From a virus (lineage: Duplodnaviria; Heunggongvirae; Uroviricota; Caudoviricetes), in the IMG/VR virus record IMGVR_UViG_3300024268_000012: a stretch of 64,000 nt of DNA, one strand, 5' to 3'. The position numbers and the translations under genes are program-made. Under the pieces are notes generated by a model. That model saw only the letters and a program-made list of their open reading frames with translations. It had not been told where the DNA came from and made no database searches. This document shows positions 8,686 to 48,728 of the stretch, in pieces. The first letter of the stretch is position 1. Each line of letters starts with the position of its first letter.

Positions 8686-9075
8686 TTATGCAGCTGTATC
8701 ATAAGTATAATCAATGAATAGATAAAGAGGATCGTCATTATCTAAAATGCGGTTTGCATTTAGAAAATTCTAAATTGAGTTAGCATCAAAGCGTAAGCTA
8801 TAAATAGGTACTTGCATTACATTAGTGGTATCAAAAGACCACTTGCCTCGAGTATCTTCTTTATATAGACCATTCACGCGCGTGCTTAATGGAGTAGGAG
8901 TGTCATTTAAATAAAATTTAATTCCAAATACTCCTCCAGAGATAGTTAAAGCTGAAATACGAATGGAACTATCAAACATAGAACCACTAATTAACATTTC
9001 TGCAGTTAAATTGGCAGGATAATTACGACTATCTCCATCTTTAACATATCGCATTTGTTTTGTTTTTGTTGCCAT
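8686..9075 (-). CDS. Hypothetical tail-region protein (129 aa; 1 TAG read as Gln)
   Basis: Track ORF stops at TAG (8770). Read-through adds QNFLNANRILDNDDPLYLFIDYTYDTAA and ends at TAA 8686. Confidence 0.75.
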
Positions 9076-9086
9076 AATATCCCTCC

Positions 9087-11786
9087 TTAGAAGATTCTAT
9101 CTTCTGCTTTCGTAGCAGTGATATTCATAGTTCCATCATGAGAGAAAGAATAACTAAAAGATTTTACAAAATATTCTCCTCGAATTCCAGTTATATCATC
9201 TGAAACAGATATGCGCACATTTGGTTCAAAATAATAAACTGGCAAAGAATTTAAAGTAATAGTTTCTTGATAATAAGTATATTGATATACCATATTATCT
9301 AAAACTTCTTTAGCACTTTTTCCCTAGCCACTTAAAGTAAAATAATTAAGTAATCCACCCACCAAATTTAATTTTACATAATTCAATGTAGATTCAGTTG
9401 GTTGAGTGTCTGTAGGATCAATAAACAATATTTCAGGAGTATCTCTAAAAAATATCGCTTTTACATCGTTATCATTAACAACTTTCGGCCGTCTACCGAT
9501 TTTATCCATACGGTATTTCTCTAATTCGCTACCCTCGCCAATAAAATCAATCCAAAACAACAATTTACCTGGATCTTTAAAATATAAAGTATGTGGTAAA
9601 TTATGTCCTTCACTATCAAGTTCAGCCTAACAGTAAATAATATCGGGATGCCAATATTTATTCTCAAACCACTCATTATGTCGTTTAATACGATCTTCTT
9701 TTTCTGAATCAGTTAAAGAATTATCTTTTTCAATTTCACTAATTGAACGATTATCATATACCAATCGCCAAAAGGCTAACATATCAGCATAACAATAATC
9801 ATAACCAGTATTCCAAGTATTTTGCCATTTATCAATTAATTCAATATGAGTACTACTCATAAATAAATCAGCATCGCTACCATCAGCAGCCGGAATTCCA
9901 AAAATCATTGAGCCTTTTTCTTGTAAATATTCAATAGACTTTCCAGTGTTTTTGTCTGTCATTTCTAAAACTGGATGTTTCCAAGATTTTTCATCAGCAT
10001 CATAATAATAACATTTTGCGGGAACATTTAATTTAGCACCTGTTTTATATGGATAATATCCTTTATTCATGGCTAACGTTAATTGTTCTATATATGCAGA
10101 AGCTCTTGAATTATCATAGGCCATACGGTATAAAATTTCTCGCCAGTCCACAATCTAAAAATTATTAGTATCCCACTGTAAAGCATCTAAATTCACAGTA
10201 ACTATAACTGTTTGATTAATATATTCAGGCTTTTCTGGGATAGTAATACCAAAATAATCAGAATATCGGCTACGACCATCAGCCAAGAAATATTGCCATT
10301 TATTAGAATAAGTTCCATCTCCATTGTCGACATATACCCAATGAAAAGAATAATAACCATTCAACTCAGTTGTGCCAAGAGTTTCTGTCATTGCAGATAA
10401 GAAATTCTCTTCATTAACAATAACATCATGACAATTAAGACCGTTATTGCGACCTGGCTCAAAATAAATCTTTTTCCCAATTTCGCCAAAACGCCAATTA
10501 TCTTCTGTATAATAAGTGATACCATTAAATAAACAGAAATATTCTTGCGGTTTATTATCAATAGCATAACGTAAATGTATTGGTGCATCAGTTGAAGTTG
10601 TGCCCCATACAACAAAATCATTACGAATATTACTTAATAAAGGCTTATTTGCAAATGAGTTAATCAAAAAACCATTAATAAATTCATATTGAGTCTAAGT
10701 ACTATTTAAACTATCATAATAAGTACTTTCACCTTCATTTGTAATTGCACCATGCCAAGCAATATTATGATAAATACGCTTTCTTTGAAAAACAAATCTA
10801 CCCCAAATATCATAGAAATATTCAAATTCACCAAGCATATTTACAATAGCATCAAGAGCTTGTGTGACTGGACTACCAGCATTTACAATTAATTCACCTG
10901 GATAAGTAAGTTCTGTTTCACGATATCCTGCAGTATCACCATATTCTACAAATTTAATAATACGATAATAAATTCCATTTAGTTCAAATGGCTCATAAGG
11001 AATATAGTAATCAGGATCATCTTCTGTAGCGCCTTCTTTTTTGGGTGCAGCTTGAATAAAATCATTAGCCAAAGCAGATCCTTCAAATACCATTTGACTA
11101 GTATAAAACTTAAAATCAGATGATGTAGAAATATCATAAATAAATAAGCCTTTATCAGCTACTTTATAATCTAATAATTCTACTGCGCAATCATCTAAAT
11201 CTGCAATTATAATATTTTCGTAAGATTCAAGAGCATAAGTGTGTACGGCGTCTCTGACAATTTCTTTGATAGCAATTTCTTTGCGGTAAGTGGTGCCATC
11301 ACCATTAATAATTTCAATATCACTAAAGCTGTGATCGGCAAATAAACTTCCTCCAATTGAACCATCTAACATGCACATTTTATCTTTTCCCTAAATAGAA
11401 ATTGATAATCCAGATGTATTGGAGGTCTAAGAGAAAGAAGTAATAATAAATACTCCCTGTTGAAACCAAATAATTTCATCATGAATTGTATCAATGTAGT
11501 TTCGTAATCCAATTAAAACCGCAAATTTAGTATGTAATCCCCAATAAATTTCATTTAATTCTGAATTGGTATTATCTGTTGTAATATTGAGGCTGCAAGT
11601 GCGGCGGGTGGCTGAAGAGCCATCCACAGAAATATTGCCAGATACAATATTACCGGTAATTTCTGCGATGGCTCGTTCATCCCAGTCTAATGAAATTAAT
11701 TTAGCAAATACTTCACGTTGAGTATAATTATCTAACTGCTTTAAAAAGACATTATCTAAAGAAGCTTGAGAAGTACCAATAAACAT
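9087..11786 (-). CDS. Baseplate/tail-tip protein, DUF5048-like C-terminus (~899 aa; 6 TAG)
   Basis: Six track fragments share one frame, joined across TAGs at 11427, 11391, 10695, 10155, 9627 and 9324; ends TAA 9087. Read-through gives ISI(Q)GKDKMCMLDG and S(Q)GKSAKEVLD. C-terminal QETITLNSLPVYYFEPNVRISVSD..GIRGEY motif. Confidence 0.8.
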
Positions 11787-46488: not shown

Positions 46489-47661
46489 TTATTCCTCCTT
46501 TAACATTTCCATCATCGTTAAGGCATCATCTTCAGCCTCTTGTTCTAAGAATTCATAGTGTTCGGCAAAGTCATCATCTTTCAATTCATCAAGAGAATCC
46601 ATATCCATAATTTCATCTTCATCATCAATATCTTCATCTTCTTCGCGTTCGGCTTCGCGCTGCAATGCCTTAACCGCAGATTCGATAAGATTACCAAGAT
46701 TCATCTCTTCAGTAACAAGAGTGTTAGTGTAGCCACGCAAGTCCGCAAGAGTTTCATCAACTCTATCCTTCGGCTTGTCGGTATAGAAACGAGGAATAAA
46801 TCCCTCTTCTTTTTCACATAATAAAACCAGTTCAGAAATTGAGTTAACAAACTCGCCAGCCTCAGCCTTATTCTGAACCGCAGTAAATTTAGCGGATTTC
46901 ATCAAAGCGTCATAAACCTTAGACATCTTTTGGAAACCTTCGATGTCGCCCAAGTCAATCAGTTGATGAGCCTTGATTGAAGTTTTACAAATAAGCTTTA
47001 AATAGTCTTCATGAGATGGAGTCTGAATATCGAACGATTGCATCATCTCTTGATAATACTTCTCTAACTGAACCCATTCATACGGTTTGTAGGTCTTGCC
47101 CCACTTAATCGCCAAGTAAGTTTTATCTTCTTCAGTTAGATCATCTTCGAATCCCACTGGCTCAAAGGCATCAATCGGAGCAGGCTCCTCTCGTGTTGCT
47201 TCTAGTTCAGCGGGTCTTTCAGGTGTCCTGTTTGCGGCGAGAGCTTCCTCAATCTCTTCTCCAGTATAGCCTTGTCGAGCCATAACGTCTCGCTTCCGCG
47301 CATCCATTTCAGCCTTAATCTTTTCAGTATCTTCCCATGAATAATTTTTGTATTGATTCAATTTCATTTTGGAAAGGTAACGACCCAAGATGGTCATACC
47401 AGTAACCTTGGTGCGGTCCTTGCCATAACGTTCAAGTAGAGTATTCCATTCCTCTTCAATATAAGGAACATTGATCTCTTCCAAAATCCATAAATAAGTT
47501 TTCGGATTCCAATTGTCTACATGTCGAGTGATGCATTTCTTACATTCAGGTAATTTACCATCGTCGGGGTATCTATCCAACCGATTAGATGTGTAAAATT
47601 GATCAGTATCCATCGTTCGACCGCAGACCTTACAATAATAAGTTTTATTTAAGTCTGCCAT
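46489..47661 (-). CDS. Putative terminase small subunit, N-terminal Zn finger (390 aa)
   Basis: CxxC...CxxC (YCKVCG...ECKKC), helical core and acidic tail. Directly upstream of and coupled to terL; TAG-free. Confidence 0.5.
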   Translation of the reverse strand: MADLNKTYYCKVCGRTMDTDQFYTSNRLDRYPDDGKLPECKKCITRHVDNWNPKTYLWILEEINVPYIEEEWNTLLERYGKDRTKVTGMTILGRYLSKMKLNQYKNYSWEDTEKIKAEMDARKRDVMARQGYTGEEIEEALAANRTPERPAELEATREEPAPIDAFEPVGFEDDLTEEDKTYLAIKWGKTYKPYEWVQLEKYYQEMMQSFDIQTPSHEDYLKLICKTSIKAHQLIDLGDIEGFQKMSKVYDALMKSAKFTAVQNKAEAGEFVNSISELVLLCEKEEGFIPRFYTDKPKDRVDETLADLRGYTNTLVTEEMNLGNLIESAVKALQREAEREEDEDIDDEDEIMDMDSLDELKDDDFAEHYEFLEQEAEDDALTMMEMLKEE

Positions 47662-47666
47662 TCACA

Positions 47667-48728
47667 TTACTCCTTTGCCTTCTTGTTCTTGGCATTCCGG
47701 CAACACTTACACAAAGAATACCATCCATCTCTTGAACCTTTGTTTATGGAAAAAAATCTTGAATGGGCTAACTTAATTTGCCCACACCTAGTACATTTCT
47801 TCCACTTCCCATATTCTTTTTCAGTATAATACCAGGTCAGCCATTCATCTGTATAATAAGAGGCAATGAGCTTTGGAATTTTATTACGCCATAACGAAGA
47901 AATATATTCGAGCGAATGAGTGAAGCCGAATTCCTTTTCAATCATTTCCTTGATATCAACATTAGATTGCCCGTCAATTTTATATTCTACAATACGACGG
48001 TATAAAGGATAGCCGGCAAGTGAATTATCTACTAATCTATCAAAGTCTTCCATCATATACCAGGTATCACCCTCGAACCTGCCATAGCATCCTTCTTTTA
48101 GTTTAGAATAATTGCATAAAATAGTGCTAATAACAACGGGATTGATAAAGGACACACCTTCATACTGGATTTCTCCATTTTCATCTACCCATTCATCCCA
48201 TGGGAGTTTAATATAGTGTCCGATATTTCTTGTAATATTTCGCGCAACAATTGGTTGGCGGTAGGCGTTTTTAATAAGATATTGATCCTTCCGCAATTCG
48301 ATAATAGTTGATTTGATAATATAGGCTGCTCGCCCAGTCGCAGTTTTAGACAGCTTTTCCCAATATGCTATGCTGTCGCGCAACTGACGTAATGGCTCAA
48401 TTTCTTCTAAATCTTTTTTCGTAATTGTTACTTTCGGCTAAAATATTACATTCTTATCGTTCGTTACTAAATTATATATACCATCTTCGCCATTCTCCAA
48501 CTGGCCAACAAGACCCTCGAAAGATGTTTCTCGTTTATTGACAGTCGCCATACGGTTGTCGGTGAGAATCTTTCGCTCCTTCTTCTCTTGTTTCTCCATA
48601 CAAAGAACCAAATAATCAGCAAGGATTTCCAGATATTGCTCGCTTGGGTCGGGAGTCTCTGTTAAAATCTATTTCACCAATTCATTTCGCTCTTGAGGAG
48701 ATTCAATCGTATAATCTAGCTTGATTAT
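47667..48728 (-). CDS. Sigma70-r4-like HTH / C-terminal Zn-finger protein, putative late transcription factor (~353 aa; 2 TAG)
   Basis: Open frame across TAGs at 48669 and 48438. Strong SD GAAGGAGG but no ATG; probable ATA/ATT start. HTH-like RRIVEYKIDGQSNVDIKEMIEKEFGFTHSLEYISSLW and KKCTRCG...SLCKCC. Confidence 0.6.

Follow-up and report, generated by a model that had tools for sequence, protein, structure and literature searches.

What does the triplet TAG encode in a phage whose terminase, portal and tail tape measure genes are repeatedly interrupted by it? The question is raised by the virus record IMGVR_UViG_3300024268_000012 (IMG/VR; 168,738 bp), of which a stretch of 64,000 nucleotides (nt), referred to here as the window, was analyzed; it corresponds to bases 60444-124443 of the record on the reverse strand, and a window position p converts to genome position 124444 - p. 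The source is an uncultured tailed phage of ~170-190 kilobases (kb) from the supergroup of SPbeta, Enterococcus phage EF1 and phAss-1, and the window holds its late (virion) region. An initial annotation of the window had claimed that TAG is reassigned to glutamine (Gln) across the morphogenesis cluster at 8686-48728. On the evidence of sequence comparison, it is considered very probable that TAG is a sense codon for Gln in this phage (genetic code 15); it would be decoded by a phage-encoded tRNA-CUA, and the system would operate as a late-gene switch.

On the late strand between 8686 and 48737, translation table 11 gives 51 open reading frames (ORFs) of at least 60 amino acids, the largest of 566 amino acids, which cover 76.0% of the sequence, whereas re-prediction with TAG as a sense codon, a check proposed in the initial annotation, leaves 23 ORFs that cover 98.6% and include products of 3791, 1997, 1002 and 899 amino acids. 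Reading TGA or TAA as sense instead brought no gain (75.5 and 73.7%, respectively). For the whole genome, the coding fraction is 85.0% with table 11, 93.7% with TAG as sense, 86.7% with TGA as sense and 89.2% with TAA as sense. The cluster contains 104 in-frame TAG codons, distributed over 13 genes, and no in-frame TAA or TGA. The real stops of its 23 genes are TAA (21) or TGA (two) and in no case TAG, the distance from the end of one gene to the start of the next is mostly between -28 and +26 nt, and in the genome outside the cluster a small number of short ORFs might terminate in TAG. The merged ORFs match full-length families of the large terminase (TerL), the portal protein and the tape measure protein, as identified through PHROGs and tblastn. 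The earlier statements that essential genes are broken by TAG alone, that their true ends are TAA or TGA often coupled to the next start and that no gene of the cluster ends in TAG are all borne out by these figures, as is the statement that the fragments share one frame, because each ORF is continuous when TAG is read as Gln. The claim that recoding extends across the cluster stands for the 13 genes that hold TAG; however, ten genes are free of TAG, and the recoding is therefore patchy and not uniform.

The amino acid at TAG was read from the DNA of relatives and not from database proteins, because a gene caller may already have written Q at such positions. A portal search of IMG/VR gave 287 relatives, and the 80 best loci were retained; together with phAss-1 and MT836163 from GenBank these made 82 loci, against which the proteins of the window were searched with tblastn, TAG being written as X. 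The aligned subject sequences contain 1292 in-frame TAG codons and no TAA or TGA, and the late regions of the four closest genomes contain 461 TAG codons and, again, no TAA or TGA. Thirty-two of the 82 loci, with no in-frame TAG in ~1,600-4,200 aligned codons each (mostly ~4,000), served as standard-code references. Opposite the TAG codons of this phage, the relatives most often carry CAA (460), followed by TAG (159), AAA (132) and CAG (120), and the TAG codons of the relatives in turn lie opposite CAA (340), CAG (261) and TAG (159). Since CAA is two mutational steps away from TAG, this pairing reflects amino-acid equivalence and not mutational proximity.

The 32 standard-code loci cover 24 of the TAG sites, at which 49.2% of the aligned residues are Gln; at 14 of these sites (58%) Gln is in the majority. 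As a calibration, the CAA and CAG columns of the phage were compared with the same loci, giving Gln at 52.5% of residues and a Gln majority in 53% of columns; the corresponding values are 5 and 6% for its Glu columns and 2.4 and 3% for its Ser columns. The values for TAG and for CAA/CAG match, and the TAG columns are therefore indistinguishable from Gln columns. Eight TAG sites are occupied by Gln in 100% of the standard-code loci, among them codon 79 of an HNH endonuclease gene (32 of 32; Q 53 and TAG 29 in all relatives), codon 85 of the gene at 38232-38870 (27 of 27) and codons 21, 67, 130, 169 and 209 of the phrog_4051 gene at 36246-36992 (25 of 25 each). In a likelihood comparison Gln ranks first by ~620 log units with the standard-code loci and by ~1200 with all loci, values of which only the ranking counts, since the observations are phylogenetically dependent. 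The contexts singled out in the initial annotation, KTI(Q)NKES, GVS(Q)NLF and LTVY(Q)LYD, correspond to codons 529 and 368 of the portal gene and codon 209 of the phrog_4051 gene, and Gln is the commonest residue in the standard-code relatives at each (Q 22/A 9, Q 14/K 13 and Q 25/25, respectively). Five of the seven TAG columns of the portal are Gln-majority, including codon 497, where Gln and Asn tie at 11 each, and codon 100 of the sigma-like first gene of the late operon is Gln in 24 of 29. In the distant cultured standard-code phages VRE9_3, E3 and KKP_3916, Gln is found at 16 of 59 aligned positions, with Glu next at seven. Addition of the four closest genomes raises the coverage to 68 of the 104 TAG sites, including 17 in the tape measure gene, with the pairing TAG 39, CAA 33, AAA 24, GAA 15 and CAG 14; the TAG codons of these genomes face CAA 101 times and CAG 42 times. 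Random residues at TAG columns and in-frame TAA or TGA at similar density had been named as contrary signs; what was found is a Gln majority as frequent as at true Gln sites and neither TAA nor TGA. TAG behaves as a sense codon in the late genes, equivalent to Gln.

The search for a tRNA-CUA in the rest of the genome, which had also been proposed, was successful. No tRNA was found in the window itself; outside it, the genome carries an array of 33 tRNAs at 26.7-43.6 kb, with a single tRNA-CUA at c[33636-33726]. This tRNA is 91 nt long, scores 53.3 bits against the Rfam tRNA model and has an 18-nt insert in the variable region, agcccucugaaggcguaa. Its acceptor end, with an A1.C72 mismatch, the stem GGGGAG/CUCCCC and G73, is nearly identical to that of the ordinary 72-nt Gln-type Sup-CTA of phAss-1. 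The tRNA-Gln and tRNA-Trp of the phage likewise have U1/A1 and G73, and its Ser tRNAs start with GGAG. A promoter-like sequence, TTGATT-17-TATAAT with a TG extension, lies 40 nt upstream. We infer that the tRNA-CUA has Gln identity. Two Escherichia coli amber suppressors, supE (tRNA-Gln CUA) and su7 (tRNA-Trp CUA, charged with Gln), insert Gln at UAG and share with it a CUA anticodon on a Gln/Trp-like body, G73 and a weak first pair. However, they are ordinary tRNAs of 75-76 nt that suppress partially and leave TAG as a stop, whereas the tRNA described here has an extra hairpin arm and a gene with 42 TAG codons demands a near-complete reassignment.

The long-armed tRNA-CUA is not confined to this genome. 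The relative G002, whose genome is complete and terminally redundant, has no other tRNA-CUA. A first search of IMG/VR for the arm motif used 17 fixed bases and gave 64 matches, of which only those called as tRNA-CUA by ARAGORN were kept, a rough chance expectation being of the same order; 25 distinct long-armed tRNA-CUAs resulted. A second search, in which only the anticodon arm and the T loop were fixed, gave 51 distinct arm inserts, mostly with a YCUGAAG-like loop between complementary, co-varying flanks. The alignment shows, by eye, compensatory changes in the four canonical stems and a 1:72 pair that is always weak or mismatched; in the consensus fold the acceptor stem is of ordinary type (six predicted pairs and the weak 1:72), the T stem has 5 bp, with covariation, and the stem of the extra arm has only 3-5 bp. 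Two of five genomes that carry the long-armed tRNA are without the TerL family of this phage, and the tRNA type is therefore wider than the clade; it occurs in dozens of distinct variants, including in phages with an unrelated terminase. Among sampled genomes, a tRNA-CUA is present in three of five recoded and none of five standard-code members. A theta or hepatitis delta virus-like ribozyme has been reported after many phage tRNA-Sup genes (PMC10879173); Rfam at E<=1 gave no match in the 110-nt AT-rich spacer after this tRNA-CUA, a weak negative since coverage of the family by Rfam is uncertain. In relative G003, a low-GC tRNA-like gene with the anticodon UUA (ochre type) is located next to the long-armed tRNA-CUA (L153:1687-1760; Rfam tRNA 44.4 bits, two acceptor-stem mismatches), and no in-frame TAA was seen in the late genes of that relative.

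The shape of this tRNA raises the alternative that TAG is sense but specifies Ser, Leu or Tyr, the long arm causing the tRNA to be charged by the corresponding synthetase (SerRS, LeuRS or TyrRS). A 91-nt, class II-like molecule with an 18-nt insert fits such an identity, SerRS and LeuRS do not read the anticodon, and G73 is as compatible with Ser as with Gln. Nevertheless, the TAG columns of standard-code relatives contain 6.7% Ser, 0.2% Leu and 0.6% Tyr against 49% Gln, Ser falls 860 log-likelihood units below Gln, with Leu and Tyr even further down, and eight columns are invariant Gln. The arm stem is short (3-5 bp), the 1:72 position is weak or mismatched as in tRNA-Gln, unlike that in the Ser tRNAs of the phage, and the cloverleaf is of the ordinary 7/5 type. 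Known long-armed suppressors of the allo-tRNA or Ser type have an 8/4 or 9/3 acceptor/T-stem geometry and Ser (or Leu) identity (Mukai et al., PMC5389517); membership of this type is ruled out by the ordinary acceptor stem and 5-bp T stem together with the low Ser share. A Ser, Leu or Tyr meaning of TAG is thus very improbable.

An equally improbable alternative is that TAG is mainly a stop with low, regulated read-through, the truncated products being functional. Such a scheme would agree with the outcome of the genome search, in which no countermeasure against release factor 1 (RF1) was found, and with the avoidance of TAG in the most abundant proteins, which indicates that reading TAG is not free. 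However, homology to full-length TerL, portal and tape measure proteins spans every TAG, and conservation at the protein level continues after TAG in the 82 loci without frameshifts, TAA or TGA. A portal protein that ended at codon 5 or a tape measure protein that ended at codon 6 could not function, and with 42 TAG codons in one essential gene even moderate termination would abolish the product. That the genes are pseudogenes of a decaying element or contain sequencing or assembly errors can be dismissed, since, although they appear broken under table 11, only one of the three stop codons is involved, there are no frameshifts, a matching tRNA-CUA is present and the same pattern, partly at shared columns (39 TAG-TAG pairs), recurs in independent assemblies from many samples. 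A reading of TAG as pyrrolysine or lysine is just as negligible: ARAGORN names the tRNA-CUA 'tRNA-Pyl' and Lys is the second commonest residue at TAG columns (~12%), but that name is merely its default for the anticodon CUA, Lys is the third commonest residue at genuine Gln columns, behind Gln itself and Glu, and pyrrolysine decoding, judged from tRNA shape and column residues, is contradicted by the 18-nt arm, where tRNA-Pyl has a very short variable loop, and by a likelihood for Lys ~620-1200 log units below that for Gln.

The distribution of TAG over the genes is uneven. The minus strand from 48737 down to 1 is a single long array of genes on the same strand, and a divergent array of small genes occupies the plus strand from 48829 to ~62400. 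Searches of Pfam and NCBIfam gave no usable match for any late protein, including TerL, portal and capsid, and informative identifications came from PHROGs, tblastn and fold searches only. The features of the late strand are as follows.

48755..48783, minus strand: promoter-like TTGACT-17-TATAAT with a TG extension, directly upstream of the first late gene; 11 of 12 consensus matches, the identification being by consensus match only
47667..48737, minus strand: first gene of the late operon, 356 amino acids, a 'sigma factor' by PHROGs label only (phrog_5767, E 3e-50; without match in Pfam and NCBIfam); two in-frame TAG (codons 23 and 100)
46489..47661, minus strand: conserved protein of 390 amino acids (phrog_3314), TAG-free here
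44745..46487, minus strand: TerL, 580 amino acids; two in-frame TAG (codons 14 and 32)
44376..44732, minus strand: HNH endonuclease between TerL and portal, 118 amino acids (phrog_9084/559); one TAG (codon 79)
42755..44362, minus strand: portal protein, 535 amino acids (phrog_2739, E 3.5e-79; tblastn to annotated portals); seven in-frame TAG
41330..42739, minus strand: head-module protein, 469 amino acids (phrog_3313); TAG-free
40599..41303, minus strand: protein in the scaffold position, 234 amino acids, 'scaffold' being deduced from gene order only; TAG-free, 13 CAG and no CAA
39529..40575, minus strand: major capsid protein (HK97 fold), 348 amino acids, AlphaFold model with a predicted local distance difference test score (pLDDT) of 81.5; TAG-free, 11 CAG and one CAA
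38232-38870, minus strand: small head/neck gene, 212 amino acids (phrog_3853/phrog_29637, as a pair with the next gene); one TAG
37945-38259, minus strand: small head/neck gene, 104 amino acids, overlapping the 212-amino-acid gene (same pair of families); one TAG
36246..36992, minus strand: phrog_4051 protein (PHROGs), 248 amino acids; 11 TAG, which are 69% of its Gln positions
35288..36220, minus strand: virion structural protein, 310 amino acids (phrog_2729); TAG-free, 12 CAG and one CAA
33381..34664, minus strand: protein of 427 amino acids upstream of the tape measure gene, without family match; eight TAG, ending in TGA
21323..32698, minus strand: tail tape measure protein, 3791 amino acids (phrog_34405, E 1e-62, and eleven more PHROGs, ten of them annotated as tape measure); 42 in-frame TAG
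15209..21202, minus strand: distal-tail-region protein, 1997 amino acids, without family match; 18 TAG
11786..14794, minus strand: protein of 1002 amino acids (phrog_30026); four TAG
9087..11786, minus strand: tail protein, 899 amino acids (phrog_32343, phrog_1887), its start overlapping the upstream stop by one base; six TAG
8686..9075, minus strand: ORF of 129 amino acids without family match; one TAG
1..8595, minus strand: four downstream genes, of 405, 451 and 548 amino acids and a 2437-amino-acid gene that leaves the window; no TAG in ~2,800 codons within the window

A spurious antisense ORF at 35117-36238 (plus strand), which overlaps the real gene at 35288-36220 (minus strand), was left out of all counts. 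At the mean rate of the cluster ~18 TAG codons would be expected in the genes at 1..8595, and none was observed. Across the genome, the density of TAG reaches 0.7-1.1 per 100 codons at 80-110 kb and falls to 0.00-0.04 at 10-20, 120-130 and 150-169 kb. The unevenness within the late genes extends to the whole clade. The orthologues of the capsid gene hold no TAG in 23,295 codons (68 loci) and those of the scaffold-position gene one in 18,313 codons (72 loci), and TAG is never or almost never found in relatives of the phrog_2729 structural gene (55-72 loci for the three genes together), whereas portal, TerL and other neighbours hold 0.2-1.5 TAG per 100 codons. The phrog_3314 gene is TAG-free in this phage, and its orthologues in recoded relatives have 106 TAG in 24,728 codons. 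The choice among Gln codons also differs: CAG:CAA is 11:1, 13:0 and 12:1 in the capsid, scaffold-position and phrog_2729 genes, respectively, and TAG-rich genes favour CAA. The base following TAG is a purine in 76% of cases compared with 66% after Gln codons (p 0.006), a modest effect, and T follows the real stop in 15 of 23 genes. Amber suppression is classically most efficient before a purine, and the purine excess fits this context effect. The highest-copy virion proteins and the non-late modules avoid TAG, and the lack of TAG in the capsid and scaffold-position genes throughout the clade suggests that its decoding is costly.

A sequence of events consistent with Gln recoding can be proposed. 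A host-type promoter would drive the tRNA-CUA, which would be charged with Gln by a host enzyme, either glutaminyl-tRNA synthetase (GlnRS) or glutamyl-tRNA synthetase (GluRS) together with GatCAB. Accumulated tRNA-CUA would then out-compete RF1 and switch the cell to code 15, after which the TAG-bearing late genes (the first gene of the operon, TerL, portal, tape measure and distal tail) could be translated in full. The sigma-like first gene, with its two TAG codons behind a near-consensus promoter, may itself be part of the late switch. The TAG-free genes, namely the divergent GC-rich operon, the replication module, the capsid, the scaffold-position gene and the phrog_2729 gene, would be independent of the suppressor. 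The cost of competing with RF1 would keep TAG out of bulk proteins, and TAG may serve as a timing or throttle device that is tolerated only in low-copy proteins.

A further proposal, tentative and for the present rather unlikely, is that the decoder belongs to an undescribed class of amber suppressors in which a Gln/Trp-type acceptor end (position 73 mostly G) is combined with a structured arm as a functional handle and that the code, given also that TAG is kept out of the capsid and scaffold genes, would be a dosage and timing valve and not a neutral reassignment. The extra arm could permit charging where the host Gln pathway reads the anticodon, help to beat RF1 or evade host tRNA nucleases.

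Several points weigh against Gln recoding by a phage tRNA-CUA with a late switch. The 42 TAG codons of the tape measure gene would require ~98% read-through at each site. At ten of the 24 covered TAG columns, Gln lacks the majority among the standard-code relatives (K, D, S, E, T or N); ordinary Gln columns behave in the same way, yet such columns would hide a minority alternative residue, and the residue at TAG is deduced from comparative sequence only. The sole detected tRNA-CUA bears an extra arm that is otherwise typical of Ser, Leu and Tyr tRNAs, and the arm might allow mischarging or a dual identity. Many Bacillota lack GlnRS and their GluRS reads the anticodon, which bears on the charging route. 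A pattern search for tRNA-CUA in the recoded relatives G009 and G010 gave no match, although the pattern was narrow and absence is not implied. The assignment of genes as early or late rests on gene content. Finally, the initial annotation had suggested a search for RF2 or a Gln-tRNA synthetase gene; neither turned up, as a whole-genome profile search gave no release factor (PF00472), no Glu/Gln-tRNA synthetase (PF00749) and no anti-RF1 function in a record that CheckV estimates to be 88% complete.

Gln recoding of TAG has precedents. The closest is phAss-1, of the proposed genus Phassvirus (PMC10607447; GenBank OQ749652), which NCBI places in a 'Caudoviricetes code 15 clade' and in which TAG is read as Gln. 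It comes from the human gut and belongs to the same supergroup, of which Enterococcus phage EF1 is a member; its TerL, portal, tape measure and tail genes are interrupted by TAG, it has tRNA-Sup-CTA genes and no dedicated aminoacyl-tRNA synthetase (PMC10607447), and one of these tRNAs is an 88-nt long-armed Sup-CTA with the same cccucugaagg motif, the long arm not being mentioned in that paper. However, its genome is smaller (136 kb), it has a short 72-nt tRNA-CUA as well as the long-armed one, which is the only type here, and its portal and TerL are 36.8 and 43.5% identical to those of the present phage at the amino-acid level. The three members of Phassvirus share 80-86% nucleotide identity (PMC10607447), and membership of that genus is ruled out by the portal and TerL values; the present phage lies within the supergroup but outside Phassvirus.

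Clades of TAG-recoded phages in animal and human guts, with code changes over short distances, have been described by Borges et al. As set out in the passages on those clades, they resemble the present case in their standard-code hosts (Firmicutes or Bacteroidetes), in recoding concentrated in structural and lysis genes, in suppressor tRNAs in some genomes, in close standard-code relatives and in a code switch proposed to time late expression; a clade-wide exclusion of TAG from capsid and scaffold-position genes and a long-armed tRNA do not appear in those passages. For crAss-like phages with code 15, Peters et al. (PMC9523058) give metaproteomic validation of TAG as Gln, which is the direct protein-level support for this reassignment in phages and is confined to the crAss-like group; those phages differ in belonging to the order Crassvirales, with Bacteroidota hosts and unrelated structural genes, and the proteomics is theirs, whereas the present case is known from its sequence. 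The statement in the initial annotation that TAG-to-Gln recoding is established in gut phages is thus correct (Borges et al.; PMC9523058; PMC10607447), and its prior publication for the phAss-1 supergroup lowers the novelty of the present case.

A TerL tree was built for 58 members of the clade and rooted with E3 and KKP_3916; in it, recoded lineages are interspersed among TAG-free ones. The tree requires five changes of code state, and well-supported branches force at least four of them, against a mean of 17.6 after shuffling; these repeated changes agree with the short-distance changes described in the clade passages of Borges et al. Relatives by TerL and portal infect Enterococcus, Geobacillus, Bacillus, Lactococcus and Clostridium. 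Relatives by TerL also occur in bins of metagenome-assembled genomes from yak, deer and cattle guts, mostly of Bacillota but also of Bacteroidales, Treponema and Gastranaerophilales, with obvious mis-binning. This signal is noisy, and the host inference therefore rests on the relatives among cultured phages. These relatives, together with promoter-like sites that have TGnTATAAT extended -10 boxes, favour the Bacillota-type host suggested by the initial annotation; the hosts are probably gut or rumen Bacillota with the standard code.

The present genome is a distant new member (37-44% portal/TerL identity) of a large, partly recoded clade of herbivore and human gut phages and is not new in kind. 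It adds three points: TAG is kept out of capsid and scaffold genes throughout the clade, the code has changed repeatedly, and the suppressor tRNA has a long arm. Table 11 mis-annotates the present genome as well as at least 50 of the 82 related IMG/VR loci in the comparison, TerL, for example, appearing as two PHROG halves, and code-aware gene calling is therefore required for the clade. The interleaved recoded and standard-code lineages provide natural pairs for asking what a phage gains or loses with the code, the difference between TAG-rich genes of low copy number and TAG-free genes of high copy number is a testable handle on the cost of suppression, and the long-armed tRNA is the part likeliest to teach by what means Gln is enforced at UAG by a phage inside a Bacillota cell.

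Some details of individual genes remain to be reported. TerL is 47-48% identical to the annotated TerL of Enterococcus phage H1 and Geobacillus virus E3 (tblastn), and its N- and C-terminal halves match the separate 'half' families phrog_15503 and phrog_24618, which are probably artefacts of table-11 gene calling or of intron-split genes in related phages. An HNH homing endonuclease splits the TerL match into three pieces in Enterococcus phages EF1 and EF5. In Geobacillus virus E3, a standard-code relative, the depositors annotate GP69 as a topoisomerase II joined across an in-frame stop, with peptide evidence for the fusion, which may represent a single case of read-through within this supergroup. 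The capsid protein had no match when its sequence was searched against the PDB, whereas among the top 50 PDB matches listed by Foldseek for its model almost all are HK97-fold capsids or encapsulins, with a probability of 1.00. The homologues of the 1002-amino-acid protein in three relatives contain 5, 6 and 10+4 in-frame stops, every one of them TAG. For the 1997-amino-acid protein, the search of the related loci gave one relative only, with a homologue that is 50% identical. In the tape measure gene, window position 21921 is C in the window and T in the genome record, the sole base difference found, which turns a GAT (Asp) codon into GGT (Gly) without introducing a stop.

Base composition changes along the window: G+C is ~0.30-0.40 across most of 1-48 kb, 0.44 at 40-42 kb and 0.46-0.50 at 50-62 kb. 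The last of these intervals corresponds to the divergent operon, with the following features.

48829..62393, plus strand: divergent operon of small genes, G+C 0.46-0.50 compared with ~0.33 in the late genes; TAG is found neither in frame within the listed ORFs nor at their ends
49550-50368, plus strand: HNH endonuclease, by family match
58184-58840, plus strand: match to phrog_20187 (PHROGs)

The genes of this operon are mostly unannotated, with a strong A>T skew, and are poorly conserved among the relatives.

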